Of a stretch of 64,000 bases of DNA, positions 26,175-48,426 are shown in pieces (position 1 is the stretch's first letter; each line of letters begins with the position of its first letter). Under the pieces are notes generated by a model. That model was not told the origin of the DNA and made no database searches. It saw only the letters and a list, made by a program, of their open reading frames with translations. Source of the stretch: a bacterium DOLZORAL124_38_8 (GTDB lineage Bacteria > Patescibacteriota > Gracilibacteria > UBA4473); NCBI GenBank assembly GCA_002747745.1, contig PDQG01000004.1, forward strand, positions 37,646 through 101,645, in the 5' to 3' direction. The translations under genes were made by a program, and so were the position numbers.

Positions 26175-28907
26175 CTAAAACTTATAGTTTCTTTTAATAA
26201 AATCTGCTGAATCATTAGCCTGTCTATCATATTTTTTCAATTCTGATTTATAATTCTTTACAACATCTCGTAGAGAATTTGAATTATTCACAAATAATTG
26301 CATATCGACCGCATTAAAATCATTATATTCCAGACGTTTATTTAAATGCTTCAACTCTAAAAATAAATTATTCATTTTGGGATTATTCAACCCATGACCT
26401 TCATAAAAATCATTGTTTTTCATATTGTTTGCCACCATATCAGTCATTTCCCCAATTTCTTTCTTATTTTGTGCAAAATCTAACTCTAATTTCGACATAC
26501 GATTGAACTGCTCTTGATAAGTTTTATACGCCTCTTTTAAGCGTCCCATTTCAATATTAATTGCATCAATATTTCCACTTTGTTTAATTTGATCAAATGA
26601 TTTCATTCTAAATTGTAATTCATCAATCACTGTATCAAAATTTCCAACAGCTCTAGCAAGTTTTTCACTGTATCCATCATTAATTCTCATTTTTTCAACC
26701 ACTCGACGAGCCTGACTTAAATGCTCGGGATTTACTTTCGAAACAGGTTTCTTTTCAGGCGTTCGTGTTTTCTTTTTTAAACGAGCTAATCGTTCAATTT
26801 TATTCGCATTAAAGTCAACTTCATACCGAGATACTCCCTTTATTTCTTGTACTCGCCAAACACCAGAAGTTTTAGTTTCACCTAACAAACGAACCTCATG
26901 AGATTTACCAGACGAATCTAAAAATCGCACAAAATTAGATTCTTTTAACCGATTAAGTTTGGCTTCCGAGTTAACTGAATCCTTATTAGCCGTTTCTTCT
27001 ATTGGTTGTTGTTTTTTAGTGGTCGTTTTTTTATTTTCAGTTTTTACGGCTGTTTCTTTTTGCAATCGCACGCCAGCTTCTTGAGAAATCTCTACCACAT
27101 TCCCAGTGGAATCTGTTTTCTTAACTGTTTGCTTTTTATATGCTTCTGCTCCCACACGATTAGACTTTGTCACGTGCTCCACAATCGTCCCATCTTTTTG
27201 AATTTTAAATCGTTCTCCAGTTTTTAATTCCACAATTTGTGTAAATTGTGCTTCATGCACACCATAAACTTTTTTAAAAACAGATTGCTCTTCTATAGTA
27301 ATAGTTTTCCCTCCACGAACTAACGAAAATCCCGATTCCGTTCGAGTAACAGAATAAGAAATATCTTTAACAGTTTTTGTAAAAGATTCTCCCACTTTCA
27401 ATTCCTGAATTTGTTCTGTCGCTGTTAAGGTTTTTATATCTAACACTTTTGTTTTTACGCCTTCTAAAGATTCCTTAAACGCCGCTAAATCCTTTTTAGT
27501 AACCCCATTTTTTTCTAAGTTTTTCAATGTTTGCCCCATTTCGGCCACTTGCGTTTCAAGTGTATTCAAACGATTCACATCAATGTCACCTGCTCGCATT
27601 GAATCTAAGTTCAAATTAATTTCAACCGCTTTCATTTTCCCTTCGGCAACCACTTCTTTTTGACGTAATGTAGCTATTTCTGCTTCCAAACTAGTCACTT
27701 TCGATGTTTTTTCATTTAATTCTGACTGCAATCGATTTACTAAATCAAGATGCCCTTTTTCTTTGGCTTGGGCTAATTTGTCGGCCGTATCTCTCTGCGA
27801 TTTTAAGGCTTCATCAAATTGATTTTTCCTTTCAGATAATTGCGTTTTCACTTTTTCGAATTCAACTTTCATTCCGTTAAATTCTCCCTCCAAAGTTTTG
27901 TAATTTTGACTTACTTCTTTGAATTGATTCTTCCACTTATCTTTTTTGGCTTTTAATTTTTTATTGGTTGCTTTTTCGTCAACTAATAACTGTTCCTTCT
28001 CAGCAATCAAACTTTTATCTGCGTCTGCATCCTTTTTCAATTGTGCAATCTCAGTTTCTTTTGCTTGAATACTTTTATTTGATTCCGACAATTGTCCTTC
28101 CAATTTTTCCACTTTCATTTTAGCTTCTTCTATTTCCAACCGTTGATTCGCTAAAGCTTCATCAAAAACAGCAGTATGTCTTCTCAACTTTCCTTCTAAA
28201 TCTGTCACCTTCAACTCGGCCTGAATGGCAGGATTAGAAGCAATGAAATCCGCATCTGACATTTCATTATACGCCTTTTGGGCCGCTAATTTTTCTGGAT
28301 CAACTTCTGGCTCTTGTTTTTTAGGTTCAGGATTTTCCATTGTATCATTTTTTTCCGTTCCTGATTTAGATTTATTTTTTGATGCAGAAGTTCGTTTCCC
28401 TAACTTCTCAACTTTTAACTTTTCAATCGTAATAATAGTTTTCCCCACTTTTAATTCGTTCCCCACCAATAATTTTTCATTCAATGGAACATTTCTTTTC
28501 ACAACTTTTTTCGTTCCTTTTCTTCCATGTTCAATCACATCTACTAACGTCTCTCCCTGTTTATTTTTAGTAATTTCTATTTCATATTTTTTTGAAATTC
28601 GAATTTTATCTCCCACGGTCAGATTCTTTCTGGCAATACCAGATTTTCTGTAATCTGCACCCTCCTTCAAAATATTTTTCAATTTTTTTCCTTTCTTTAC
28701 TTCCAACAAATTCAATTTTGATTCTTTTATTTGTATTTCGGTTAAGATTCTTTCGGCTTTTGTATCACCTGATTTTCTTAAAGATTTCAAGACTTTTTTG
28801 ACTGACTTAACTCGCCCCAACAGTTCATTTTGTACGGTTTGAATACTTTCATTTACTAATTTTTGTTCCGCTAATCGAGCTTTCCGTTTCGCTTCTGACA
28901 ATCCCAT
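26175..28907 (-). CDS. Large coiled-coil protein (910 aa), function unknown
   Basis: Long K/E/Q-rich heptad-like segments (..EIEEAKMKVEKLEGQLSESNKSIQAKETEIAQLKKD..) are interspersed with beta-rich modules. There is no signal peptide. The 5' end overlaps the upstream ORF by 59 nt in the +1 frame. Confidence 0.55.
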   Translation of the reverse strand: MGLSEAKRKARLAEQKLVNESIQTVQNELLGRVKSVKKVLKSLRKSGDTKAERILTEIQIKESKLNLLEVKKGKKLKNILKEGADYRKSGIARKNLTVGDKIRISKKYEIEITKNKQGETLVDVIEHGRKGTKKVVKRNVPLNEKLLVGNELKVGKTIITIEKLKVEKLGKRTSASKNKSKSGTEKNDTMENPEPKKQEPEVDPEKLAAQKAYNEMSDADFIASNPAIQAELKVTDLEGKLRRHTAVFDEALANQRLEIEEAKMKVEKLEGQLSESNKSIQAKETEIAQLKKDADADKSLIAEKEQLLVDEKATNKKLKAKKDKWKNQFKEVSQNYKTLEGEFNGMKVEFEKVKTQLSERKNQFDEALKSQRDTADKLAQAKEKGHLDLVNRLQSELNEKTSKVTSLEAEIATLRQKEVVAEGKMKAVEINLNLDSMRAGDIDVNRLNTLETQVAEMGQTLKNLEKNGVTKKDLAAFKESLEGVKTKVLDIKTLTATEQIQELKVGESFTKTVKDISYSVTRTESGFSLVRGGKTITIEEQSVFKKVYGVHEAQFTQIVELKTGERFKIQKDGTIVEHVTKSNRVGAEAYKKQTVKKTDSTGNVVEISQEAGVRLQKETAVKTENKKTTTKKQQPIEETANKDSVNSEAKLNRLKESNFVRFLDSSGKSHEVRLLGETKTSGVWRVQEIKGVSRYEVDFNANKIERLARLKKKTRTPEKKPVSKVNPEHLSQARRVVEKMRINDGYSEKLARAVGNFDTVIDELQFRMKSFDQIKQSGNIDAINIEMGRLKEAYKTYQEQFNRMSKLELDFAQNKKEIGEMTDMVANNMKNNDFYEGHGLNNPKMNNLFLELKHLNKRLEYNDFNAVDMQLFVNNSNSLRDVVKNYKSELKKYDRQANDSADFIKRNYKF

Positions 28908-31179
28908 TTGGAATATCAGAATCTTTAATTTTATATCGTTCTAATTTTCGCACCATTCTTAAATCGCGTTGGGCAATTTTTTTCAAACTTGGTTTCCAAA
29001 ATCGTCTTCGAGATACTTTTAATTCATTTAATCTGTACGATTTATTCAAAGACCGTTCAACCGAAAAGGCTAACTTTTGGAACCGCAATCGAAGCGGACG
29101 CCAAACTTTTAGTCCCAAAACTTTTCTTGGTTTTATTAACACCGATTTCATTTTCCCTTTTGAATATTCAATCGACACATCATTGTTTGTATCAACTTTT
29201 TCAGGTTTTTGTTTTGGCTGTTTCTTGGTTTTCAAATTTGTTGGACCTTCCGTCACCGAGAGTTTCATTTCTCGCAAAATATTTTGAGCCGTAGTTGAAC
29301 CAGTAGCATCAACATTTCGAGCTTTCAAAGCGCCCAATTCTGCCTGATTCACTTGCCCCTCCAAAATATCTCGTATATCAAATTTTTCTCCTCTCTCGGC
29401 CGCATCATATATTTTACGAGCCTTTTTAGGATTTAGTCGTCCGTCGTTTACTCGGTTTGACAAAAGTCTTCTCAAGGCATTAATTTTCGCATTATTTTTT
29501 ACCAGATTACCATTCAAATCTCTCCATTCTGATGCGGGAATTTTTACTTCAGCCCCAGCTCCACTATACAACGTACACAAGTCTTCCGCCGTTTCGGAAA
29601 CTCGCTGTGGAACGGTTTTTTGATCAACTGAGTTCTTAATAACTTCTGATTTTTGTTTCTTAGCTTTTTCTGGTTTTGTTTTTGATGCTTCTGAATCAGT
29701 TTCTTCAGTCTTTGTTTCAGATTTATTTTCTTCTGATTTTTTTGTTTTGCTGGCATCCGTTGAATTTGATTCCGATTTTTCACCTTTTATTTTTTGCGCC
29801 GCATTAGCATTTTTTTTGTTTCCCCATTGATTCATTCGCTCCATTGGTCGCCGCATAGCACTCCCACTGATACGCAATGCCCCAGCTGCAACAAATGCGT
29901 GGAACCATTCATCCCCACTCGCAAAGGTCTCGAACACTTCATTTATATCACCTTTATAAGTTCCATTTTGAACCGCCGCAATTAATACCATAGCCGTAGC
30001 TTCAGCCGAAAGATTTACTCCATCAGCGGTTAGATTTTTAATTCCATTTAATAATTTTTTATCTGCCACATTTGGCAACAAGTTTTTTAATTTAGTCCCA
30101 ACTCCAATTTTGTGAACCATTTTAAACACGCCAAGCGTAGCGGCTGTCCACATAACACGAGTTCCAATTTCTCCCAATCCATTTGCATCAAAAATCGTAT
30201 CTACTTCTTTATCCAAAACACTTCCCATTCCTTCCATTAAGGCTCCGTGCATTCCTTCAAAGGCCAAGGCTTCGACCCCTAATCCAACAAATCCACGAGC
30301 TCCATTAGCAATACGACCAATTCTTCCTAATCGGGCAGCTGATAGCCCCATACGAGCCACGACCGAACGAGCGCCGGCCGACAAACCAAACCTAGCCACA
30401 TTCGCGAACCCACCAGAAACAATAATCAGCGGTGCATTAATAACTAATTCTTCGAATACGGTATCCCAAGTCTCATCTGCCCAATTAAAAGTCCCAATTC
30501 CTGCCGATTTAACATATTGATCCCAAAATTCTGTTTTATCAGCTGGAATACGATTTTCTAAATCATTATCGTAAATATATTCAGCAATTTTTTCGTTTCT
30601 TCCGTGCTGATAGGTTTCCATAATCAAAGCATCAACATAATTTTTCGCTTGTTTTTGCGCTTCTTTACCCTGAATTTCTGGATTTTGCTCTACTATTTGC
30701 CCCGTCAACTTTTGTACATCAATTTGAGAACTTACTTTTTTCTTCGCTTCTTCGTACACATCTTGCTGTACTTCAATTGTTTCTCCATTTGAATTTTTCA
30801 ATTTAACTAATGAGAATTTCTCTTTTTCTAATTTTCCAAAAGTTTCGGTCAGTTCTTCTACCGCTAAATGACGTGCAGTTTCGTAATGCCCACCAGTTGT
30901 TTCTGTATCTCTTAACTTTTTAACGACTAACGCCTTAAATTTCAATAAATCAGATTTACTGTTAATTTTTGATACATTAAAAGCCTCTTGCGTTCCAGCC
31001 GTTCTATCTAAATCAAACCAACTATCCTTAAATACATCATCGACAGCATTTTTCTCTTCTGAACCAGCCGGTAATAATTCATTAAATATATCCGAAAAGT
31101 TCTCCCCTTTTAAAATTCGAGACTTAATATTTTCTTTGTTGCTATTATATTTGTTCATCGCCGAACGAACACCAGCCAA
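28849..31179 (-). CDS. Large hypothetical protein (776 aa) with central Gly/Ala-rich hydrophobic block
   Basis: The track start is TTG; the first ATG is at 31158. Residues ~245-440 (nt 29860-30447) read ..VINAPLIIVSGGFANVARFGLSAGARSVVARMGLSAARLGRIGRIANGARGFVGLGVEALAFEGMHGALMEGMG.., followed by a K/E/S/T low-complexity linker. Confidence 0.55.
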   Translation of the reverse strand: MAGVRSAMNKYNSNKENIKSRILKGENFSDIFNELLPAGSEEKNAVDDVFKDSWFDLDRTAGTQEAFNVSKINSKSDLLKFKALVVKKLRDTETTGGHYETARHLAVEELTETFGKLEKEKFSLVKLKNSNGETIEVQQDVYEEAKKKVSSQIDVQKLTGQIVEQNPEIQGKEAQKQAKNYVDALIMETYQHGRNEKIAEYIYDNDLENRIPADKTEFWDQYVKSAGIGTFNWADETWDTVFEELVINAPLIIVSGGFANVARFGLSAGARSVVARMGLSAARLGRIGRIANGARGFVGLGVEALAFEGMHGALMEGMGSVLDKEVDTIFDANGLGEIGTRVMWTAATLGVFKMVHKIGVGTKLKNLLPNVADKKLLNGIKNLTADGVNLSAEATAMVLIAAVQNGTYKGDINEVFETFASGDEWFHAFVAAGALRISGSAMRRPMERMNQWGNKKNANAAQKIKGEKSESNSTDASKTKKSEENKSETKTEETDSEASKTKPEKAKKQKSEVIKNSVDQKTVPQRVSETAEDLCTLYSGAGAEVKIPASEWRDLNGNLVKNNAKINALRRLLSNRVNDGRLNPKKARKIYDAAERGEKFDIRDILEGQVNQAELGALKARNVDATGSTTAQNILREMKLSVTEGPTNLKTKKQPKQKPEKVDTNNDVSIEYSKGKMKSVLIKPRKVLGLKVWRPLRLRFQKLAFSVERSLNKSYRLNELKVSRRRFWKPSLKKIAQRDLRMVRKLERYKIKDSDIPNGIVRSETESSISGTKISK

Positions 31180-38118: not shown

Positions 38119-39906
38119 TTATCGTCGTTTATCTCGTCTGTTTCGACCTCCTCCACTGTGACGATCGTTTCTTCCGCCCGAACGTCTTCGATCATTACTT
38201 CTTCTATCACTATTTCGTCCCCCGCGGAATCCCCCCGAACGATTCCCGTTTCGTCGTCGGTCTCCGCCTCGGTTGCCACCACCAGATTTCCGTGGTTTCG
38301 CCGCTGGTCGTTTGCTTTCGTCTTCAATATAACTTACCAACAATGGTTCGCCGCGGTGTTGAAATTCAGTCTCTAACAATACTGGTACAAAATCTGGTTC
38401 AATTTCAAAATATGAAACTTTTCCTTGCACAGACACATCACCAATATCGGCTTGTTTAAATTCTGGTTTTTTCCCAATCATTCGCACTAATTGAGCCGCC
38501 CCAATACCCGCATCTGAACCAATATTTATCGCCATAATGGCGTATTCATGTTTGGGTCGTTTTGGTTTGTTCGCCTTCGTCACATTCGCATTCAAATCAG
38601 GCGCGTTTTGGTAATATTTCATAAACCGATTTAATTCTTCGGCCACTAAGTGCTGAATCAATTCCTCTTTCGTCATATCACCCAATTCGGCGTATACGCG
38701 TTCCATAAACGGTTTGATTTGTTCAATATCTACCGCAAGGTTTTTAATTTTTTCAATCGTGTGAAATAATTTTCGTTCACAAATTGGCTCTGCAGTTGGA
38801 ATCAATTTATCTTCAAATTTTGCCCCGACTAATTTTTCTAGCATGGCTCGTTTTCGCCCGTCTCGCATATGCATTAAACAAATCGACACGCCTTTTTCTC
38901 CCGCTCGTCCGGTTCGACCACTTCGGTGAATATACACTTCGGCTTCGTCTGGTAATTGATAGTTAATTACGTGCGTTAATTCTTTTACATCTACGCCTCG
39001 AGCGGCTACATCAGTTGCCACTAACAACTGTAATTGTCCACGACGAAACGCATTCATCACACGGTCTCGTTGTGCTTGCGACAAGTCTCCATAAATAGCG
39101 TCCGCATTGTATCCATCTTCCATCAACTTATCAGCCACTTCTTTGGTTTCTCGTTGCGTTCGACAAAACACAATCCCGTAAATATCTGGATGAAAATCAA
39201 CAATTCGTTTTAAAGCCGCATAACGATCTTTGGCGTGTACCGTGTAAGCCACGTGAGCAACATTTTTGTTTCCAATACTTTTCCGTGCCACTTTAATTTC
39301 TAATGGTTTATGCATATATTTTTCAATAATCCGCTCCATTCCGTTTGGCATGGTCGCCGAAAACAACAAAGTTTGTCTGTCTTTATTGGCGTGCTCTAAA
39401 ATTACATCTAGTTCTTCCTGAAACCCCATAGACAACATTTCGTCGGCTTCATCAAGAATCAAATAATCTATTTTTTGTAACTTCAAATGCTTTCGTTTTT
39501 GCATATCAGTTACTCGACCAGGCGTTCCTACCACAATTTGTGCTCCTTTATTTAACTGTCGGGCTTGCGTTTCGATAGAAGCTCCACCGTACACCGATAC
39601 CACTTTTAAGTCGGGCAAATATTTGGTAAACGATTGAATGGCGTTCGTAATTTGAATACACAATTCTCGTGTTGGACACAAAATAATAGCCTGCGTATGT
39701 TTTTGCGAAATATCAACTTTTTGAATAACCGGCAACGAAAAAGCGGCTGTTTTTCCGGTCCCAGTTTGAGCAAAAGCTAACAAATCTTGGTTTGATTCCA
39801 GTAATTGTGGAATCGATTTTTCCTGAATAGGGGTTGGGGTTTCAAACCCTAAATCGTTCAGTGCATGCTGAACTTCGTTCGATAAATTGAAATCTGAAAA
39901 TTTCAT
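38119..39906 (-). CDS. DEAD-box ATP-dependent RNA helicase with Arg/Gly-rich tail
   Basis: Q-motif region, AQTGTGKT, DEAD, SAT and HRSGRTGRAG motifs, a DbpA/CsdA-like C-domain, and a terminal ..GGNRGGDRRRNGNRSGGFRGGRNSDRRSNDRRRSGGRNDR... Confidence 0.9.
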   Translation of the reverse strand: MKFSDFNLSNEVQHALNDLGFETPTPIQEKSIPQLLESNQDLLAFAQTGTGKTAAFSLPVIQKVDISQKHTQAIILCPTRELCIQITNAIQSFTKYLPDLKVVSVYGGASIETQARQLNKGAQIVVGTPGRVTDMQKRKHLKLQKIDYLILDEADEMLSMGFQEELDVILEHANKDRQTLLFSATMPNGMERIIEKYMHKPLEIKVARKSIGNKNVAHVAYTVHAKDRYAALKRIVDFHPDIYGIVFCRTQRETKEVADKLMEDGYNADAIYGDLSQAQRDRVMNAFRRGQLQLLVATDVAARGVDVKELTHVINYQLPDEAEVYIHRSGRTGRAGEKGVSICLMHMRDGRKRAMLEKLVGAKFEDKLIPTAEPICERKLFHTIEKIKNLAVDIEQIKPFMERVYAELGDMTKEELIQHLVAEELNRFMKYYQNAPDLNANVTKANKPKRPKHEYAIMAINIGSDAGIGAAQLVRMIGKKPEFKQADIGDVSVQGKVSYFEIEPDFVPVLLETEFQHRGEPLLVSYIEDESKRPAAKPRKSGGGNRGGDRRRNGNRSGGFRGGRNSDRRSNDRRRSGGRNDRHSGGGRNRRDKRR

Positions 39907-39939
39907 AGTGTGTTATACGTGAGTCGACCGACTCAATAA

Positions 39940-40001
39940 GGAAAGGCGTTAATCGCCTAATATAATGGCGGGAAAATTGATAAGGCCGCTATCACCTTTC
40001 C
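39940..40001. other. 62-nt element able to form a three-helix junction
   Basis: Outer stem GGAAAGG (39940-39946) / CCTTTCC (39995-40001). It encloses GGCG-ttaat-CGCC and GGCGG..CCGC(t) hairpins. It lies between the rpsG terminator and the helicase start. Confidence 0.4.
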
Positions 40002-40005
40002 CTAA

Positions 40006-40032
40006 GAAAAAAGACCCGCCTCTTCGCGAGTC
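40006..40032 (-). terminator. Intrinsic terminator of rpsG
   Basis: Minus strand: GACTCGC gaagag GCGGGTC (7 bp including one G:U) followed by TTTTTT. The same hairpin has a C:A mismatch on the plus strand. Confidence 0.65.
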
Positions 40033-40056
40033 CTTTGTTAATCTTTCTATTTTTGC

Positions 40057-40584
40057 TTAGTACCGTGCCAAGTGAGCAAACGCTTTATTGGCTTGTGCGG
40101 CTCGTTGTGCTTCGGTCTTTTTCCCGAAAGCTGAACCTTGTTCTGTGGCAGCATCCATCAATTCTGATGCCAACCGTTTAAACATTGGTTGTCCTTTTTT
40201 GGCTCGAGCTCCAGCCAAAATCCATCGAATAGGCAATGACAATTGTCGTTTAGTCGTTACTTCGATTGGAATTTGGTACACTGACCCCCCAATTCGTTTT
40301 GGTCGTACTTCCATAGATGGAGTTACGTTTTTAATCGCTTTTTCAAAAGTTTTTAGCACATCGTCTGCTCCTCGTCGGTGCATTTCTTCGAAACAATCTT
40401 TCAAGATTCGTCGGGCTAATTCTTTTTTTCCTCCTTTCATAATTCCATTTACAAATTTTGATTGCAATGGATCATCCAAAGAGAATGGATTTACAAATTT
40501 CTTTGCTTTTGGAGCTTTTTTTTCTGCTCCTGCCGAATTTTTAGAGGCGACTTCTGCGGCCGCTACTTTTGTTTCTTTTGCCAT
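40057..40584 (-). CDS. rpsG: 30S ribosomal protein S7, with ~20-aa Lys/Ala-rich N-terminal extension
   Basis: ..SKFVNGIMKGGKKELARRIL.., ..VRPKRIGGSVYQIPIEV.., ..R.LA.RWI...AR.. and ..AFAH.R. Confidence 0.95.
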   Translation of the reverse strand: MAKETKVAAAEVASKNSAGAEKKAPKAKKFVNPFSLDDPLQSKFVNGIMKGGKKELARRILKDCFEEMHRRGADDVLKTFEKAIKNVTPSMEVRPKRIGGSVYQIPIEVTTKRQLSLPIRWILAGARAKKGQPMFKRLASELMDAATEQGSAFGKKTEAQRAAQANKAFAHLARY

Positions 40585-40645
40585 CGTAGGTCAAAGGTAA
40601 TTAAATACGCAGAGAAAATAAGAATTTATCAGTGTTTGTCAACTT

Positions 40646-42307
40646 TTACGCTACCAAGTTTAAATAACATGCTTCGCAGAGAATTCGTCTGTCATATTTG
40701 GTTGGCCAAGAAGTTTGAATAGACTTCTGACATTTTCCACAAGTACCGTCTCTAAGTTCTCCATCAAACGGCAACCAACGGAAGTTTTCTTGGATGCGAG
40801 CCATATAAAAACTATGTGGCAATGGTACTTTTAACTTTTTGGCAAAAGTAATATCGTGCTTGGTTATTTGGAACGGTCGTCGATACGATTCATCCCAAAA
40901 TATTTGCTGTAATAACCACTCGGTTCTTTCTTCCGTTAATTCGTCTACCGTGTCTGGTATTTCGGTAATTTCCGCCGTTTTTACAGGTTCTCGGTGTAAT
41001 GGTTCACAAGTTCTAAAGCCGAGTGTTTCTTGTTCGGAATTGGATAACGGCCAGTAAAACGAACTCCAACTTTCGTTGTATGGATTGGGCGCAAAATGAC
41101 CAGGAAAGAATTGTCCCCATTCGCCCGCTTGTTTCATATGAGCGATAATTTTATCTTTGAGCGCAAAATATTCATCTTCAGAATACGGTTTATTAAATAT
41201 ACAATATTTTTTCCCTACTAATCCACAACACCCAAAACAATTCTCACACTGAAAACAATAAGCACAATAATCTATAAATTGGCACTCGGTACACGCAAAA
41301 GAAAAGAAATTATCATAGGTCGAAAACTGACAAGTTGTTGAATAATAATTTCGTTCTCCAATGGTACAACCAATCGTATCTAAATAATGGCTGCTTTCAT
41401 AAGCTCTGATGGCATTTACTGAATCAGTAATTTGTTGGCTAAAATAAATATTTTCAGCCTTATTATTTTCAGATTGATAGTTTCCCGTACAATCTTCTGA
41501 CTTATCTATACTTTGGGCTCGATGAAAGGCTAAATTTGTCATCATATCGGCAAAAAATTTTTTGGCTTTAGTATATGATTTTTGGGAAGATAAATTCCAA
41601 GCCGCTATTTTGGTTTCGTATTCACTTTGGGTTAATTGTTTATTCCCGAAGCAATATTGTTTGTTTCGCAGGTTAAAACAAAACATACAATCGGTACAAT
41701 TCCGACAATCATACAAAAACGCTGAATTTTGCACCTTCCGACAATTTAATACGTACTTGGAATCAAAACAATCGTAGCAATTTATATCATCGTTACATAA
41801 CTCACTATTAATAGAAAAAATTGAGCCCTGAGAATCACGAACGAGTGAACGATAACAGTATTGAGCATCTTCTGATTTGTAAATAGAATGTGCTAAATAA
41901 CAATTTTTAGAGTACCAACAATCATCCGTATACTCACAGTTTTCATTTTTATTTCCGGTGCGATGAGGAATTGGACACTGTTTAAATAATGCCCACGCTT
42001 GGTCAAAAAATGGTTGGGTAAAATCAAAATCAGCTTGTGATGGATTATTTTCTTCTAACCAAACACTTCTCTGCCATACAGGATACTCACATTCAGGACG
42101 AAAAATAGAAATGATAGGTTTTCCTGTTCTATCACATTTTCTACTATGTAGATTCCAATGTGGCCAAAACGATCCTAACTGTCGGAACCGATATTTTGGC
42201 TTTATCATTGGCAATGAAGCACCAAAGCCAAATTTCGCTCTTAGTTCTTGTTCTAAATCTGATACTTCAAAGGTTTCTCCCGATAACGCACACTTTACTT
42301 TGTTCAT
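40646..42307 (-). CDS. Cysteine-rich protein of unknown function (about 553 aa) between rpsL and rpsG
   Basis: About 34 Cys by hand count. Dense CxxC/CxC runs occur (..NCYDCFDSKYVLNCRKV..YDCRNCTDCMFCFNLRNKQYCFGN.. and ..ACTECQFIDYCAYCFQCENCFGCCGLVGKKYCIFN..), and the C-terminal zinc ribbon is CGKC..(17)..CEAC. The internal ATG at 42307 was chosen as start. Confidence 0.6.
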   Translation of the reverse strand: MNKVKCALSGETFEVSDLEQELRAKFGFGASLPMIKPKYRFRQLGSFWPHWNLHSRKCDRTGKPIISIFRPECEYPVWQRSVWLEENNPSQADFDFTQPFFDQAWALFKQCPIPHRTGNKNENCEYTDDCWYSKNCYLAHSIYKSEDAQYCYRSLVRDSQGSIFSINSELCNDDINCYDCFDSKYVLNCRKVQNSAFLYDCRNCTDCMFCFNLRNKQYCFGNKQLTQSEYETKIAAWNLSSQKSYTKAKKFFADMMTNLAFHRAQSIDKSEDCTGNYQSENNKAENIYFSQQITDSVNAIRAYESSHYLDTIGCTIGERNYYSTTCQFSTYDNFFSFACTECQFIDYCAYCFQCENCFGCCGLVGKKYCIFNKPYSEDEYFALKDKIIAHMKQAGEWGQFFPGHFAPNPYNESWSSFYWPLSNSEQETLGFRTCEPLHREPVKTAEITEIPDTVDELTEERTEWLLQQIFWDESYRRPFQITKHDITFAKKLKVPLPHSFYMARIQENFRWLPFDGELRDGTCGKCQKSIQTSWPTKYDRRILCEACYLNLVA

Positions 42308-42397
42308 CAAAGAAATAATAACACAGAAAAAAATTTTTCTAAAAAAAATATCCACCAACTGGGCGGATACTTCTTTTATTATCACATGTATTAATTC

Positions 42398-42811
42398 CTA
42401 ATTTTTTGGTTTTTTCGCTCCGTATTTTGATCGTCCTTGTCGTCGAGCCGAAACTCCATCTGTATCCAATACTCCTCGTACAATGTGATATCGTACCCCA
42501 ACCAAATCTTTCACTCGTCCACCTCGCAACAACACCACGCTGTGTTCTTGCAAATTGTGTCCTTCTCCCATGATGTAAGCATTCACTTCCATTCCGTTCG
42601 TCAATCGAACTTTTGCAATTTTTCGCAAAGCCGAATTCGGTTTTTTTGGCGAAACGGTAGTAACTTTTGTACAAACCCCTCGTTTTTGTGGTGAGTTTAA
42701 TTTTCGTGCTCGATTCTTCAAGCTGTTGAACAATACGCCCATAGCTGGAGATTTAGATTTTCGAGTCTTGTCCTTTCGTGACTTTCGAATTAATTGATTA
42801 ATTGTTGGCAT
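42398..42811 (-). CDS. rpsL: 30S ribosomal protein S12
   Basis: [11 protein letters not shown]......KSPA......Q+[17 protein letters not shown]+[38 protein letters not shown]. Confidence 0.97.
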
Positions 42812-42873: not shown

Positions 42874-45800
42874 TTATTCACTTGTCAAATTTTCTTCTAC
42901 TTCCTCCTCTAATTCTGGTTCTGGTAAATCTTCAAATACATATTCATAATCATTTGATTCTTCATATCCGGTTCCGGCTGGAATCAATCGACCGATAATT
43001 ACATTTTCTTTTAATCCTTCTAATGAGTCTGGTCGTTTTTCTGATGAAGCGTTTACGAGCACTCGGATTGTTTCTTGGAATGAAGCCGCTGACAACCAAG
43101 AATCCGTCCACAACGAAATTCGAGTCAATCCAAGGAGTAATTGTTCAAACAACACTGGTTTTTTCCCTTCGGCAATAAGTTTTTCGTTTGCTTTTCGAAC
43201 CCGAACAATATCTTTGGTTTCTCCTGACAACCAGTCTGAATCACCCGCATCTACAATTCGTACTTTTGACGTCATTTGACGTACAATCACTTCAATATGT
43301 CGTTCATTCACATCTTGCCCTTGAGAAGCATAAATTTGAAGCACGCCTTTCAAAATATATTCTTGCACTTTCGCTACAGACGTTAATTCCATTAATTCTC
43401 GCAAGTCAACGTGTCCAGCTACCAATGGCGTTCCTACTTCTACAAATTGACCATCTTTTACTTTCAATACTTTCCGGTTTGGCACGGTGTACGTTCGTTT
43501 GGCTGGTACTGATTCTTTCACCACAATTTTATCTGCTTCTACTCGCAACACTTTTCCTGAATTCAACGCTTTTATTTTTGCTTTTGACTCGGTTGAACGA
43601 GCAATAATTTGTTTTTCTTTAATGGCGTCCCCTTTCTTCACAGAAGCCTCCATGTTATATCCTAAATGATATTCATGTTCTTCGGCTTTGTCGGCTGACA
43701 ACGTAATAACACTTTCGGTTCGACCTTTTTTAATTGAGACCGTTCCTGAAATTTCAGCCATCACCGCTGGATTTTTAGGTGATCGAGCTTCGAAAAGTTC
43801 TTCCACTCGGGTCAAACCTTGCGACATTGAGTCTCCTTCGGTGGCTACCCCTCCCATGTGGAAAGACCGCATAGTAAGTTGTGTCCCTGGTTCCCCAATT
43901 GATTGCGCCGCAATAATTCCAACCGGCGTTCCCATTTTTACTAATTTTTTGTTCCCCAAATCCATTCCATACGTTTTTTGACATACACCAGATTCGGTAT
44001 TACTGAAGAACACAGAATGCACGGCCACTTCTTCAATATCTGCTTGCTTAATTTCATTCAAAACTTCTTCGTCAATCAACGTGTCTTTTTTTACAATAGT
44101 TTTTGAACCTTTTTTAATATCTTGTGCTGTAAACCGTCCGAAAATTCGTGAACCAAAATCAATTCCCATTTCGGTTGATTCAGCTTGAGTAATCACTCGG
44201 AATCCGGTTGGATTACTGTCAGCTTCTTTTACCACAATGTCTTGCACTGAATCTACCAAACGACGGGTTAAGTATCCGGCTTCGGCTGTTTTTAGGGCCG
44301 TATCAGATTTCCCTTTCCGTCCCGCATGCGTGGCATTAAAGTATTCCAAAATAGAGAATCCTCGTTTCAAGTTGGTTCGCACTGGCAATTCAATCGTTTT
44401 CCCAGCTGGATTTACCACCAACCCTTTCATTCCGGCAATTTGTGTTACTTGTCCCCAGTTCCCTCGGGCTCCAGAATTAATTTGGTAGAACACATCATTT
44501 TCATTCTCAAACTCAGCTACCATTTCGTTGGTAATATCGGTTTTTACGCGAGACCAAAGTTTAATAGTTGTTGTATATCGTTCTTCGTCAGTAATCAATC
44601 CTTGTCGGTATTGTTTGGTAATTTTATTTACAATTTCGTTGGCATCATCGATAATTTTATCTCGATTTGGAGCTTCATGGAAGTCAAACGCCGAAATAGT
44701 AATTCCTGATTTAGTTGCGTATTTAAACCCTAAATCTTTAATGTCATCGGCCAATTTAGCCGTAATATCTTCATCTTTTTCTGCAAATACTTCTGCCAAC
44801 AAGTTGGCCAATTCTTTCTTTCCAAATGATTTATTTTGGAACGGCATTCCTTCCGGAATAATTCGATTAAAGAAGATTCGTCCAACGGTCGTTTCAATCA
44901 CTTCTCCCTCAATTCGCACTTTTACTGGAGCTTGCAAGTGAACCAATTCTGATTCATATGCTTGCACCGCTTCATCCGCTGATACAAACCCTCGTCCCGT
45001 TCCTTGTTTTCCTTCAATCGATTGCGTCAAGAAGTAACATCCCAACACCATATCTTGCGAAGGTTCAATAATTGGTTCCCCTGAAGATGGTTTCAAAATA
45101 TTTCTTCGAGCCGTCATCAAATGTTTCGCTTCGGCTTGTGCTTTCAAGCTCAACGGCAGATGCACCGCCATTTGATCCCCATCAAAATCGGCATTATACG
45201 CCGCACACACTAATGGGTGCAAATGAATCGCTTTTCCGGCTACTAATTTTGGTCGGAAAGCTTGAATCCCTAACCGGTGCAAGGTTGGAGCCCGATTCAA
45301 AAGCACATATTTATCTTGAATCACTTCATCCAGAATATCCCACACAATTCGGTCTCCTTCTTTGACTAATTTTTCAGCTGATCGTACATTGTAGGCTAAT
45401 TCAAACTTAATCAATTGCGCAATCACAAATGGTTTGAACAATTCCATCATAACTTTTTTTGGCAACCCACATTCGTCCAATCGCAAATCTGGACCAACCA
45501 CAATCACTGAACGACCAGAGTAATCCACTCGTTTCCCCAACAAATTTTGTCGGAATCGCCCTTGTTTTCCTTTCAACATATCTGAAAGTGATTTCAGTTT
45601 TCGTTTTTGTGCGTAATTCATTCCCGCTCGGGTGCTTCGAGACGAATTAGAAATCAAGATATCTACTGATTCTTGCAACATTCGTTTTTCATTTCGACAG
45701 ATAATTTCTGGGGCTCCCAATTGAATCAATTTTTTCAATCGTCCATTTCGATTAATCACTCGTCGGTATAAATCATTCAAATCAGAAGTAGCAAATCGCC

Positions 45801-46773
45801 CTCCGTCTAATTGAACCATTGGACGCAAATCTGGTGAAATCACTGGAATGGCCGTCAAAATCATCCATTCTGGTTTCATATTGTTTCGAATAAACGAGTC
45901 AATAAGTTTCACTCGCTTAATAGATTTCTTTTGTTTTTGTCCACTTGTTTTTCGTACTTCTACTTCCAATTCTGCTTGCAATTTTTTCAAATCCAAACCT
46001 TGCACAATTTCTCGAATAGCATCCGCCCCAATTCCGGCTCGGAACACGTGTCCAAATTTCATTGAAACATCTCGATAATCTAATTCTGACAAGATTTTCC
46101 CCACTTCAATTTCTTTCAATTGATCTACTGAGTTTTGGAAGTTTTCTGAGATTTCTTCTAATTTTTGCACACATTCTGCTTCTAGGGCAGTTAAATCTTT
46201 TTCGGTCATAGCCCCGCTTTTAACGGCTCCTTTGGCAGCCGCCAAGCTTTGAGAATTTTCTGATTTAACTTTTTCTAGTAATTTTTTGTATTCTGATTCA
46301 AGCGCTTGCAACTCATCTTCTTTCGCTCGTTCGTCAATTTCAACCACAATGTATGCCGCAAAATACACCACTAATTCTAATTTTTTCACAGGCAAATCAA
46401 GCAATAATCCTAATTTTGAAGGCGTTGATCGTAAGAACCAAGGATGTGTTACTGGCACCGCCAATTTGATGTGTCCCATTCGTTCTCGTCGCACTTTTGA
46501 GTGAATCACTTCTACGCCACATTTTTCACAGACAATTCCTCGGTATCGGATTCGTTTATATTTTCCACACGCACATTCCCAATTTTTTACGGGACCAAAA
46601 ATTCGTTCACAAAACAATCCATCGGCTTCTGGCTTTTGCGTTCGGTAATTAATGGTTTCTGGCTTTGTTACTTCTCCATGAGACCAGCTAACTACATCTT
46701 CTGGCGAAGCGATAGAAAGTACGATTGAAGAGAAATCTTGCTGATTGTGAATTTTTTTCGCGTTTTCAGACAT
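42874..46773 (-). CDS. rpoC: DNA-directed RNA polymerase subunit beta'
   Basis: N-terminal zinc site CACGKY..C.KCGVE, the NADFDGDQM active site, and trigger-loop and C-terminal conserved blocks. The 1299-aa ORF is uninterrupted. Confidence 0.97.
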
Positions 46774-46968
46774 GATGTATATAAAATTTTAAACAAAAAA
46801 TCGGCGGGAAAACCTCCCTCCTCCAAACAACTATTTCACTAGTCGCACAGCGGATTTCTGCAATTTTTTCGCCGAAACATTCCGCCCGATGTTATTCAAA
46901 AAAGGCCAGCAGTCAAATTTTTCAACTAGTTTTCAAGCAGAGAAAAAACCCTATAATGCTTACAAAAC

Positions 46969-48426
46969 ATGAAAAATATACGATTATTATCTTTACTTGG
47001 ATTTTTGGGGGGCACTTTTTTGCAACCATGGATTCAAGCTGATATTTCATTATTGGTTGGAATTCTGAGTCTCACAATCTTTGGTTTCATTTGGTTTCGA
47101 AAAATTCATCCATTGAAAAACGCCTGCGGAGTACTCGCCTTATTCGTGGGAGGATTGATTTATCCAACTTTTTTTCAAACCCCTCGTTTTCCACCAACAC
47201 AATTAAAAAAAGAACTTTCGTACGAAGGCATCATCATTAGTGCCCCCGAAACAAAAAGTCGCCACCAACAAGTTATCACTAATTTAACGCACCCCACACA
47301 ACAAACCGTACTCATTCAATTCCCACTAGAGACGCCGCTATTTTATGGACAAAAAATACAGTTTACGGGCGTTGCCAGCATTCCACCAAAATTTAATCGG
47401 TTCGATTACGCCAGATATCTCCAAAGGCTTAATATTAGTGCTATTGTTCGTGCCAAAAGCCATCCAAAGTTGCTCGCCACCAACCAAGCCTCCAGCTTCG
47501 TATTCTCCGCCCAAAAACTCCGCCATATTATTCAGTCGAACCTTGAAAAAATTTTCCCCAGTGACCAAGCCACTGTTGCGACCGGAATGCTCTTAGGAGT
47601 AAAAAAAAGCCTTTCAAAAACAGCCGACCAACAATTTAGAAACGCCGGACTCACCCACTTACTAGTTGTTTCAGGAGCTAATGTCAGCTTGATTATCGTG
47701 CTTGTTTCACTCGCCCTACAACCACTTGGAAGACCTATTACGTTTTTCGGTTCTATGGCAACCATTCTTTTTTTCATTGGCATGACAGGTGCCGATCCAC
47801 CCATTATTCGAGCGAGTTTAATGGGCGGATTAATTGCCTTAGCGCCTCTGGTAGGAAGAATTCCTGATTATAAAATAACACTTGTTTTTTCAGCCGTACT
47901 AATTGCCCTCGTTAATCCCAAAATTGTCCAACAAGACATTGGCTTCTTCTTAAGTTTTGTGGCTACCGCGGGCATCATTTTAGGCAGCCCCATTTTTATG
48001 TTCTATTGGGAAAAACTCTTCCAACAGCGATTTTCTATACTTAAGAACATTTTAGCCGTCACCGTTTGTGCACAAATTTTTGTACTCCCTATCAGCGCCT
48101 ACTTTTTTCAAAATTTCCCCTTGGGCGGATTTATAGCAAACATCGTAGCCGAACCAATCGTCCCCTTAATAACCATTGGAAGCCTTGGTATAAGTGTCCT
48201 CGGATTCCTCCCCACTATCATCGGTAAAATCATCGCCTTCCCCATTTACTTCTTTTTGAAAATCTTATTTCTTATCGCCGAGATTTTTTCACAAATACCG
48301 TCAATCAGCATCAATCAAACAATGTCTCAGATACTGATTATTCTCGAAGTCGTAATTATTTTACACCTCCTACTTTCAGAAAAAATTGAACGAACGTTTT
48401 ATCTCAATGAATTTAAGTTGTGTTAA
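46969..48426 (+). CDS. comEC: ComEC/Rec2-family DNA internalisation channel (membrane core only)
   Basis: Multi-TM protein with ..FRNAGLTHLLVVSGANVSLI.. (competence-domain signature). There is no C-terminal metallo-beta-lactamase domain. TATAAT (46952-46957) lies 11 nt upstream of the ATG. Confidence 0.8.
   Translation: MKNIRLLSLLGFLGGTFLQPWIQADISLLVGILSLTIFGFIWFRKIHPLKNACGVLALFVGGLIYPTFFQTPRFPPTQLKKELSYEGIIISAPETKSRHQQVITNLTHPTQQTVLIQFPLETPLFYGQKIQFTGVASIPPKFNRFDYARYLQRLNISAIVRAKSHPKLLATNQASSFVFSAQKLRHIIQSNLEKIFPSDQATVATGMLLGVKKSLSKTADQQFRNAGLTHLLVVSGANVSLIIVLVSLALQPLGRPITFFGSMATILFFIGMTGADPPIIRASLMGGLIALAPLVGRIPDYKITLVFSAVLIALVNPKIVQQDIGFFLSFVATAGIILGSPIFMFYWEKLFQQRFSILKNILAVTVCAQIFVLPISAYFFQNFPLGGFIANIVAEPIVPLITIGSLGISVLGFLPTIIGKIIAFPIYFFLKILFLIAEIFSQIPSISINQTMSQILIILEVVIILHLLLSEKIERTFYLNEFKLC

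Follow-up and report, generated by a model that had tools for sequence, protein, structure and literature searches.

The locus

The window, i.e., the whole stretch of 64,000 nucleotides that was analysed, contains a gene, here called X, that separates rpsL from rpsG, a gene pair among the most conserved in bacteria. The genes of this region and its surroundings are as follows:

40057..40584, minus strand: rpsG, ribosomal protein S7, 175 aa (PF00177, 2.4e-44; TIGR01029)
40646..42307, stop codon included, minus strand: X, Cys-rich 553-aa protein of an unnamed Patescibacteria family (ORF and full-length homologs)
42398..42811, minus strand: rpsL, ribosomal protein S12, 137 aa (PF00164, 1.8e-35; TIGR00981, 7e-62)
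42874..46773, minus strand: rpoC, upstream of rpsL
46969-48426: ComEC, divergent from rpoC

An earlier, sequence-only reading of this DNA had reported a large ORF between rpsL and rpsG on the same strand, with spacers of 90 nt (rpsL-X) and 61 nt (X-rpsG), and the ORF together with the Pfam and TIGR models confirms this layout. X begins with ATG, which gives 553 aa; a longer version starting from GTG at 42385 finds no support in the N-termini of the homologs. An alternative genetic code was rejected because only 3 of the 49 ORFs of the window end in TGA and there is no in-frame continuation. Likewise, the absence of a Shine-Dalgarno sequence does not speak against translation of X, since only two of the 49 ORFs carry one. 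X has no TM segment and no signal peptide, and it is a genuine gene whose product is soluble and cytoplasmic (approx. 64 kDa, acidic overall with a pI of 5.9). The S7 protein has an N-terminal extension rich in Lys/Ala/Glu, and the start of rpsG is kept in a related contig (L003).

With rpoC-rpsL and rpsG on one strand, the window resembles the canonical str operon (rpsL-rpsG-fusA-tuf). However, rpsL and rpsG are parted by a 1.66-kb non-ribosomal gene, fusA and tuf are missing downstream, and no rpoB lies adjacent to rpoC on its upstream side. The arrangement in which ComEC diverges from rpoC-rpsL is also found in two related contigs (L111 and L114). Neither a second copy of X nor a TrmB gene or an rplM-rpsI pair was found in the window.

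Gene order in related lineages

In all eight related contigs that show both genes (L003, L107, L108, L109/L110, L111, L112, L113, and L114), no gene separates rpsL from rpsG. In L107 and L109/L110, X is the next gene after rpsG, in L001 and L056 the next after rpsI, and X orthologs elsewhere adjoin unrelated genes. Among the related contigs, only L106, the closest relative (84% identity in S7 and 69% in the C-terminus of X), shares with the window both the order X-rpsG and a TTGACA-16-TATTTT element before rpsG; the rpsL side of L106 falls outside the visible contig. It should be noted that L106 (X-rpsG) and L107 and L109 (rpsG-X) came from a search centred on S7 and not from the one centred on X. 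It was the S7-centred search that overturned the view that the arrangement is unique to the window. The order rpsL-X-rpsG, for which a synteny check had been suggested by the sequence-only reading, occurs in none of the 101 X-centred loci, and the eight contigs named above keep rpsL next to rpsG. The proposed link between X and the str operon holds within a small clade only, in which X stands beside rpsG (the window, L106, L107, and L109/L110).

According to the same reading, absence of X from this position in relatives would point to a recent insertion. The pair is indeed uninterrupted in relatives; nonetheless, the absence of direct or inverted repeats flanking X and its GC3 (0.286), which matches that of rpsG (0.284), speak against a recent horizontal insertion. 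Because rpsL and rpsG are adjacent in eight contigs, X follows rpsG or rpsI elsewhere, and only L106 has the order X-rpsG, the presence of X between rpsL and rpsG is, judging from gene order, a local, clade-restricted permutation and not a foreign insertion. In sister lineages, rpsL is followed by rpsG, and X comes next after rpsG, or after rpsI, behind a putative terminator; in the window and L106, X precedes rpsG.

Transcription signals in the spacers

Four candidate signals surround X and rpsG:

42340..42378, minus strand: intrinsic-terminator-like hairpin (A-tract, GC-rich stem, U8), just past the rpsL stop (RNA fold)
42315..42343, minus strand: promoter-like TTTAGA-17-TATTAT with TG upstream, ahead of X, weak evidence (consensus scan)
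40615..40642, minus strand: promoter-like TTGACA-16-TATTTT in the X-rpsG spacer (scan and alignment with L106)
40003..40036, minus strand: terminator hairpin and U-run after rpsG, end of the unit (RNA fold)

The hairpin in the rpsL-X spacer was overlooked by a simple terminator scan and detected by RNA folding. It reads AAAAGAAGUAUCCGCC-CAGUU-GGUGGAUAUUUUUUUU, in the order A-tract, GC-stem, U-tract, and its core folds at -14.4 kcal/mol (z = -5.5), with none of 200 shuffled sequences folding equally well. A stable GC-containing hairpin followed by a U-run is what is expected of an intrinsic (Rho-independent) terminator, and this spacer probably contains one. The earlier statement that no terminator hairpin is visible in either spacer is thus refuted for the rpsL-X spacer, but it stands for the X-rpsG spacer, which is unstructured (-1.9 kcal/mol). 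Equivalent hairpins lie between rpsG or rpsI and X in L109, L107, and L001, and no comparable hairpin is present in the 24-nt rpsL-rpsG spacer of L003. These hairpins argue against the suggested co-transcription of X with rpsL; the terminator-type structure after rpsL would insulate X from that gene. Downstream of rpsG, the 150-nt region also folds better than expected (z = -4.2). No Rfam family was found in the spacers.

Consensus-type promoter sites are no more numerous near X than shuffling of the region would lead one to expect. For the element before rpsG, alignment with the corresponding spacer of L106 shows that the blocks TTGACAAAC, TATTTT, and CGTATTTA are identical. The existence of this conserved TTGACA-16-TATTTT element between X and rpsG is at odds with an operon in which rpsG relies on the transcription of X. 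With it, rpsG has a promoter-like element of its own, although transcripts of X may also run into rpsG.

Architecture and predicted fold

The protein can be divided into modules with the architecture A-B-B'-linker-A':

42032..42307, minus strand: N-module A, residues 1-92 (HHalign to the C-module, column counts)
41522..41974, minus strand: putative solenoid repeat B, residues 112-262 (Cys autocorrelation, DSSP on the model, HHalign)
41123..41521, minus strand: putative solenoid repeat B', residues 263-395 (periodicity, HHalign, model)
40913..41122, minus strand: acidic linker domain, residues 396-465 (conserved columns)
40649..40912, minus strand: C-module A', residues 466-553 (column counts, co-variation)

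The modules are related in pairs, A to A' (HHalign E of 1.6e-30 between the N-module and the C-module) and B to B' (3.9e-37). In repeat B, hexads of the form [C/S]-x-x-[C/V/L]-x-[N/D] precede a helical hairpin, and B' ends in CFGCCGL..KKYCIFNK and a helix. The linker, whose median pI across the family is 4.5, carries the family-wide motif GEWGxFFP...P.YNES, with conserved columns E396, G398, F401, P402, and Y410.

The AF2 model of X (pLDDT 90.6, pTM 0.90) contains, according to DSSP, short strands approx. six residues apart. A Foldseek comparison of a first, shallow AF2 model with PDB and BFVD had returned nothing useful. In the structural search of the kind proposed by the sequence-only reading, all of the top 50 matches in PDB are left-handed beta-helix proteins, but these matches are weak (E >= 6.7e-3, probability <=0.3, TM <=0.21). 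Owing to this weakness, the solenoid assignment rests on the AF2 model and the sequence periodicity. Within this context, B and B' are probably homologous Cys-rich repeats of a hexapeptide-type beta-solenoid.

The predicted solenoid shares its six-residue periodicity and its short strands with LpxD, LpxA, GlmU, and gamma-carbonic anhydrase, to which the Foldseek matches point consistently but weakly. However, hexapeptide transferases have the hexad [LIV]-G-x2-[STAV]-x instead of the one described above, and X has no Hexapep HMM match and no catalytic His, and its modelled core is lined with Cys. The predicted coils of X, with their N/D periodicity of 12 residues, may also resemble Cys-laddered beta-helical antifreeze proteins such as that of Tenebrio molitor, which are secreted and disulfide-bonded, with Cys 6 residues apart, and whose short solenoid coils likewise have regularly spaced core Cys. 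X differs from them in being cytoplasmic, in having Cys 3 residues apart, and in its zinc-finger caps.

Terminal fingers

A and A' appear to be treble-clef/zinc-ribbon modules, each with a zf_Tbcl finger followed by CxxC-x17-CxxC. The latter motif is intact at the C-terminus of X (C523/C526/C544/C547, nt 40667-40741) and corresponds to the terminal CxxC..CxxC ribbon noticed earlier, so that the metal-site part of the sequence-only reading is supported to the extent of at least one zinc-ribbon motif that is, by its sequence, bona fide. At each of these four columns, 94-100% of family members have Cys, and the columns co-vary (phi 0.79-0.91), as do the ligand tetrads of the terminal fingers across the family (phi 0.76-0.95). 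The other three of the four finger sites of X are degenerate: the N-module keeps C6 and has S9, K36, and Y39 where the family has Cys/His, and the first finger of the C-module has D472, Y475, F500, and A503 at such positions. Thus, the ligand set of zf_Tbcl (PF13451), CxxC ... C(P)xC, is absent from the N-terminal and the first C-terminal finger of X. X itself gives no HMM match to TIGR04272 or PF23477. Among 85 paralogs, matches at E<0.1 in Pfam/NCBIfam were obtained for zf_Tbcl_2 in 41 and for TIGR04272 in 34, and zf_Tbcl was matched by 14.

The exact CxxC-x17-CxxC spacing at the C-terminus relates X to zf_Tbcl (PF13451), zf_Tbcl_2 (PF23477), and TIGR04272. Such domains are small stand-alone proteins or tails of helicases and ATPases, whereas in the X family the Cys-rich solenoid core of 340 residues, for which there is no domain model, is capped by two of them. 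[quoted passage not shown] Metal binding by X would be essentially limited to the terminal fingers, of which it keeps one complete putative Zn(Cys)4 ribbon, C523/C526/C544/C547.

Central cysteines

As counted previously, X contains 34 Cys in dense CxxC strings (6.1% of its residues, compared with 0.99% in the other ORFs of the window), and 11 overlapping CxxC motifs can be distinguished. These strings had been taken to suggest multiple Zn or Fe-S sites. Contrary to this expectation, the autocorrelation of Cys reaches 0.64 at lag 3 and remains at 0.41 as far out as lag 18, the central Cys are replaced in paralogs by S/V/L/I/A/T/G and never by Asp nor, positions 219 and 369 aside, by His, and no all-or-none co-variation was found among the central Cys columns, unlike the finger ligands. 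Because of the period of 3, the S/V/L/I/A replacements, and the lack of co-variation, most of the 34 Cys look like inward-facing residues that pack the predicted solenoid core at every third position rather than metal ligands.

A protein in which the CxxC strings bind several Zn or Fe-S centres, for electron transfer, metal storage, or redox sensing, would be in line with the sheer number of Cys and CxxC motifs, with C201/204/207/210, C360, and C369, which are Cys in 80-96% of the family, with positions 219 and 369, which switch between Cys and His, and with Cys 73, 124, 151, 342, and 361, which occur together as a set specific to a subfamily. Moreover, in the subfamily of the window, the Cys of C351-x2-C354-x2-C357-x3-C361 are formally spaced as in a ferredoxin-type motif; however, only 5% of the family have Cys at the position of C361 and 49-72% at those of C351/354/357, X has no Fer4 match, and neither Fer4 nor any other Fe-S Pfam match occurs among 85 members. 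In about half of the central columns, Cys accounts for only 25-60% of the residues, the substitutes being aliphatic or small, and tetrads that co-vary like those of the terminal fingers are absent. Together with the regular hexad periodicity and the solenoid model, this makes a multi-metal protein improbable, and X is unlikely to be a redox or Fe-S enzyme. The highly conserved C136, C192, C201/204/207/210, C360, and C369, which lie beyond the reach of the co-variation test, could bind metal.

A large family and its neighbours

The suspicion that the N-terminal third belongs to a conserved uncharacterised family proved correct. One search returned 720 homologs, another 2810 clusters at 50% identity, and a third at least 5490 homologs; the members are uniformly approx. 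550 aa long, every one is labelled 'hypothetical', and they are almost exclusively from Patescibacteria. X and the A1 profile have no match in Pfam, PADLOC, or PDB sequences, and their best E values in NCBIfam (0.06) and PHROGs (0.04) are non-significant; with the X protein, there was no Pfam match at E<=1, and the sole NCBIfam match at this threshold (0.06) is irrelevant. Homologs are absent from phage records, plasmid collections, and viral contigs. In the literature, no paper was found on CPR proteins that combine a Cys-rich beta-helix with a zinc ribbon. The Peribacter paper deals with Cys-rich proteins of another kind, which are secreted, and the X family is missing from its Table S4; an X-like family is mentioned neither in a Southlakia Tn-seq paper nor in a CPR perspective.

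Paralogs form tandem arrays of up to 8 copies per locus, and 90% of array paralogs are closer to a relative in another genome than to their own array. Genes for TrmB regulators and for VirD4-like ATPases (T4CP) recur as partners of the family. Of 102 X loci, 13 contain a T4CP gene, as do 10 of the 33 among them with at least three copies of X. The association concerns mainly array paralogs. Except in L083, the T4CP gene points in the same direction as the nearest X gene. The contigs concerned are labelled as several CPR groups. The sole T4CP scanned in full, that of L077, carries zf_Tbcl_2 (Pfam). In the window, a T4CP-like gene (9094-11880) lies 30 kb from X. Orphan T4CPs are abundant in Patescibacteria and have no known clients (PMC12102498). 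The arrays of X paralogs that abut co-oriented T4CP-like genes recall VirD4/TrwB-type coupling proteins with their client genes. However, relaxases are rare in CPR, the ATPase of L077 appears from its sequence to have no N-terminal membrane anchor, and the X gene of the window is not adjacent to a T4CP.

What X may do

The idea that X is a translation or ribosome factor, co-expressed with S12 and S7 and acting at the decoding centre or in 30S assembly, draws on where X is found. In the window, L106, L107, and L109/L110, it falls inside the str operon or adjoins it; in L001 and L056, it follows rplM-rpsI (a distant paralog is similarly placed in L074); and in the window and L026, a DEAD-box helicase is close by. 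Furthermore, no terminator separates X from rpsG, and treble-clef/CxxC-x17-CxxC fingers occur in fusions with cold-shock and DEAD-box proteins. Nonetheless, a terminator-like hairpin precedes X wherever the spacer is visible (the window, L001, L107, and L109), rpsG has a conserved promoter-like element of its own, the X protein is acidic, and other orthologs lie beside unrelated genes. Much of the content of small CPR genomes consists of translation genes, and proximity of X to them is therefore expected by chance. The complete lack of rpsL-X-rpsG among the X-centred loci and the recurrence of TrmB and VirD4-like ATPases as partners speak against the translation-linked role envisaged earlier. 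A ribosomal role is not supported and seems improbable, although there is some room for a translation-linked one because several of the nearest lineages have X beside genes for ribosomal proteins.

It is rather unlikely that the family is a diversified defence/offence module, in which X would be a sensor or effector working with HerA/FtsK-like ATPases or a cargo of CPR type IV secretion. Tandem arrays, neighbouring MazF/RelB toxin-antitoxin genes, TrmB regulators, and T4CP/DUF87 ATPases, T4SS pilin genes that adjoin X in L001, L003, and L109, and the abundance of clientless orphan T4CPs would all suit such a conflict system. However, significant PADLOC or PHROG matches, copies in phage or plasmid collections or viral contigs, and recognisable effector or enzymatic domains are all lacking, and the paralogs are old, most being closer to a copy from another genome, unlike the products of fast arms-race diversification. 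[quoted passage not shown] The Foldseek scores are poor, Hexapep (PF00132) is matched by none of 85 members, the hexad register is unlike [LIV]-G-x4, and neither His nor any other catalytic residue is conserved throughout the family, H140 being kept only in the subfamily of the window.

Taken as a whole, the observations are best explained by a zinc-finger-capped, Cys-cored solenoid that probably acts as a partner-binding scaffold and is encoded by a permuted but apparently insulated gene. As a zinc-finger-tipped scaffold, X would bind a macromolecular partner, and the candidates include nucleic acid and soluble VirD4/TrwB-like ATPases, which flank the paralog arrays and carry the same finger. 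A bolder and rather speculative extension is that the thousands of orphan, relaxase-less VirD4-like ATPases have their missing partner in the X family, which would serve as client, adaptor, or nucleic-acid-handling subunit and dock via zf_Tbcl_2.

Implications

A non-ribosomal gene between rpsL and rpsG is unusual, and the locus offers a case in which a flanking gene appears to have been permuted into a ribosomal operon with its insulation kept, through a putative terminator on its upstream side and a new promoter-like element that would serve rpsG. X would also be a concrete case showing that dense CxxC strings need not mean metal clusters. It opens onto a very large, nearly CPR-only family with thousands of members that has no name, no core domain model, and no paper. 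The recurrent adjacency of this family to orphan VirD4-like ATPases provides a testable lead on the role of these ATPases in Patescibacteria. If X family members were indeed their partners, the single-copy subfamily of the window would be a housekeeping derivative in which most of the fingers have disappeared, and the two components together would constitute a CPR-specific transfer or secretion module for the episymbiotic lifestyle.

Layout of the locus

The Cys-rich gene, here X, lies between rpsL (S12) and rpsG (S7). X was defined by ORF call, its neighbours by ORF and HMM scans:

42874-46773, minus strand, rpoC
42398-42811, minus strand, rpsL
40646-42307, minus strand, X, a 553-codon ORF
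40057-40584, minus strand, rpsG
38119-39906, minus strand, DEAD-box helicase gene

The N-termini of homologs align to the ATG at 42307 and do not match the upstream GTG, which was rejected as the start. The spacers measure 90 nt (rpsL-X) and 61 nt (X-rpsG), as first read. The sequence-only reading had seen no terminator hairpin in either, which holds for the X-rpsG spacer, in which RNA folding finds no structure, and fails for the rpsL-X spacer, where an A-tract/stem/U-tract hairpin is followed by U8 (core -14.4 kcal/mol, z = -5.5; 0/200 shuffles equally stable). Judged by its sequence, this hairpin has the anatomy of an intrinsic terminator and presumably acts as one, so that the proposed co-transcription of X with rpsL is unlikely. 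A consensus scan of the X-rpsG spacer finds a perfect -35 box (TTGACA), 16 nt and TATTTT, a putative promoter. Transcripts of X may read into rpsG, which, with a candidate promoter of its own, would not depend on X. Another strong hairpin, also with a U-run, lies downstream of rpsG.

The str operon is cut short here and stands alone (38119-40056 and 46774-48426). Neither fusA nor tuf was found 3' of rpsG in the window, where the putative terminator is followed by the helicase gene, encoding an RGG-rich tail; rpoB was found neither 5' of rpoC, a side occupied by a divergent ComEC gene, nor among those window ORFs that were compared with Pfam. ComEC also adjoins rpoC in the related contigs L111 and L114. 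S7 has a Lys/Ala/Glu-rich N-terminal extension, MAKETKVAAAEVASKNS... (40495-40584, minus), whose start is kept in contig L003 (2222-2500), where it reaches about 85 aa. S12 (42398-42811, minus) has 137 residues, as in relatives, about 13 beyond the TIGR00981 model; these appear to fall near 24-39 as an insertion. Shine-Dalgarno-like motifs precede only 2/49 window ORFs, and stop codons are TGA in 3/49 and TAA in 37/49.

The family and its architecture

X contains 34 cysteines, the number first estimated (6.1% vs 0.99% for window ORFs), and no hydrophobic segment was found, which predicts a soluble, cytoplasmic protein. Neither X nor the A1 profile matches PDB sequences, PADLOC or Pfam, and matches in NCBIfam and PHROGs are non-significant (E 0.06 and 0.04). 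The suspicion of a conserved uncharacterised family was borne out: a word-indexed search yielded 720 homologs, and 2810 clusters at 50% identity were found at E<=1e-3 (899 of these at E<=1e-30), nearly all about 550 aa long and annotated 'hypothetical'. With a Paceibacteria-type paralog as the sole query, 90%-identity clusters numbered at least 5490. Homologs come from Peregrinibacteria/Gracilibacteria, Paceibacteria-type groups, Abawacabacteria and one MAG labelled Saccharibacteria; the few MAGs under other names are probably mis-binned.

In A2, a family-wide alignment of 108 sequences (about 30% identity), HHalign matches the N-module to the C-module (E 1.6e-30 over 80 columns) and repeat 1 to repeat 2 (E 3.9e-37 over 124 columns), from which the architecture follows as A-B-B'-linker-A'. 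When 85 members were scanned singly, A modules matched zf_Tbcl_2 in 41, zf_Tbcl in 14 and TIGR04272 'CxxC-x17-CxxC' in 34; in small Methanosarcina proteins, the CxxC-x17-CxxC domain binds zinc, as determined by ICP-MS (PMC12704099). In one family member, P0157 (731 aa), a GNAT acetyltransferase domain stands N-terminal to a full X-type protein, a fusion that may be genuine or may stem from an error in gene calling.

Cysteines and fold

Column statistics (X numbering) split the cysteines into two classes. Finger ligands (columns 6/9/36/39, 472 and 523/526/544/547) are kept or lost as sets: phi is 0.76-0.95 among columns 9/36/39 and 0.79-0.91 among 526/544/547. In X itself, substitutions have removed the N-terminal finger (S9, K36, Y39) as well as the first C-terminal one (D472, Y475, F500, A503), and the terminal CxxC..CxxC ribbon noticed earlier is its one full ribbon, C523/C526/C544/C547. 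The central cysteines recur at every third position across about 100 residues per repeat, in a [C/S]-x-x-[C/V/L]-x-[N/D] hexad (autocorrelation 0.64 at lag 3, 0.41-0.53 at lags 6-18); in many of these columns only 25-60% of members have Cys, the others carrying S, V, L, I, A, T or G and never His or Asp, and co-variation between the central columns is weak. AlphaFold2 with a deeper alignment (pLDDT 90.6, pTM 0.90) models the centre as a run of short strands spaced about six residues, and the top 50/50 Foldseek matches in PDB are left-handed beta-helix (LbH) proteins (LpxD, GlmU, LpxA, gamma-carbonic anhydrase), all weak (E >=7e-3, TM <=0.2).

Taken together, these properties argue that most of the 'CxxC strings', first read as multiple Zn or Fe-S sites, form a beta-solenoid core and not a row of metal sites. 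Nonetheless, central cysteines 136, 192, 201/204/207/210, 360 and 369 are too conserved for the co-variation test to reach, and the window X subfamily has its own co-occurring cysteines (73, 124, 151, 342, 361), of which C361 completes a C-x2-C-x2-C-x3-C spacing, so that a central metal site may exist; a multi-metal protein is unlikely. An LbH-type transferase, to which the Foldseek matches might point, is very improbable.

Gene order in relatives

The order rpsL-X-rpsG, whose conservation in relatives had been suggested as a check, occurs in 0/101 loci from X-centred searches; in L003, rpsL and rpsG are 24 nt apart and X lies 3 kb further on. Because the best X match in these sets is only 59% identical, an S7-centred search was added and its contigs inspected.

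Contigs from the S7-centred search (identity to the window; gene order)
L106: S7 84%, X C-terminus 69%; X - 70 nt - rpsG
L107: S7 76%; rpsL-rpsG-[putative terminator]-X
L108: S7 76%; rpsL-rpsG, then IS1595 transposase
L109/L110: S7 74%; rpoC-rpsL-rpsG-[putative terminator]-X, then convergent Big_1 and T4SS-pilin genes
L112: S7 75%; rpsL-rpsG, then PBP
L111, L114: S7 73%, 72%; rpsL-rpsG, then contig end
L113: S7 70%; rpsL-rpsG, then RNase J

The L106 X-rpsG spacer shares the TTGACA-16-TATTTT block with the window, together with a conserved downstream block. In the MAG of L113, X lies downstream of S13-S11-S4-RpoA-L17-L13-S9 (locus L001), with a terminator-like hairpin before it and Big_1 and pilin genes after it, as in L109/L110. 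L107 and L108 encode an identical S7 protein (P0391) and differ in the 3' neighbour of rpsG (X vs an IS1595-family transposase), which suggests that this junction is a rearrangement hot spot. The composition of X is native (GC3 0.286 vs 0.284 in rpsG), and no flanking repeats were found around it. In the simplest reading, X in this clade originally adjoined the end of the str or rpsI operon on its downstream side, and X and rpsG would have switched order in the window/L106 lineage, resulting in rpoC-rpsL / terminator / X / promoter-rpsG / terminator. The rpsL-rpsG split is limited to one small lineage.

Genomic context of the family

In the loci surveyed (79 in species-representative genomes, 20 in metagenomes), relatives of X form tandem arrays with as many as 8 copies, and recurrent neighbours are TrmB-like regulators, VirD4/TrwB-like coupling ATPases (T4CPs), SLH proteins and MazF/RelB modules. 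In Ca. Peribacter riflensis, 7 X copies share 21 kb with two TrmB regulators and one T4CP-like ATPase. T4CP genes occur in 13/102 loci, and in 10/33 of those with three or more X copies, co-oriented with the nearest X gene everywhere except L083; the one ATPase scanned in full (L077) carries a zf_Tbcl_2 finger. The paralogs are old; 90% are more closely related to a protein of another genome than to any in their own array. The window X subfamily is distinct and nearly always has one copy per locus (61 members spread over 60 loci). Patescibacteria reportedly encode 5713 VirD4-like T4CPs, mostly distant from virB4, with relaxases nearly absent (PMC12102498).

The window encodes a 928-aa VirD4/TrwB-like ATPase (9094-11880, minus), whose 470-aa N-terminal region has no Pfam match, and two large T4SS_pilin-domain proteins (58467-61492, plus), homologs of which directly adjoin X in L003; T4SS_pilin-domain genes also adjoin X in L001 and L109. 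No TrmB homolog was found in the window. The metagenome contig L102 has the X N-terminus closest to the window (68% identity over 71 aa); there, a gene for a TrmB-like regulator (180-959, minus) lies ahead of X in divergent orientation. Four large window ORFs (1316, 812, 910 and 776 aa), located in three stretches, lack a Pfam match at E<=1e-5:

699-4649, minus strand, no Pfam match
12020-14458, minus strand, no Pfam match
26175-31179, minus strand, no Pfam match

The 12-mer AATCCCGCGAAA (extended AAAATCCCGCGAAAwTT) recurs in several related Peregrinibacteria contigs, within genes and between them, on both strands equally and with unrelated flanks, at 0.5-1.5 per kb in L001, L002/L082, L107 and L109/L110 (32 copies in 21.7 kb of L082, at 492, 2698, 3887 and onwards). 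An inverted pair flanks X in L001 and L109, and the window has 0 matches at <=1 mismatch. The word resembles over-represented words of the DNA-uptake-sequence type; no paper connecting uptake sequences with CPR was found.

Functional interpretation

The single elements (treble-clef ribbons, a hexapeptide-like solenoid, the str operon) are familiar; the family itself and the combination of these elements have no earlier description. A ribosome-linked role, suggested by the sequence-only reading, is improbable, and retains some probability because several of the closest lineages have X beside genes for ribosomal proteins. That X is a conflict or effector module is doubtful. X is more probably a zinc-finger-tipped solenoid scaffold for a macromolecular partner, for which the best lead is the T4CP-like ATPases with the same finger as the X family, the alternative being nucleic acid. 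The interest of X would lie in the size and strangeness of its family and in the T4CP lead, and less in the ribosomal idea.
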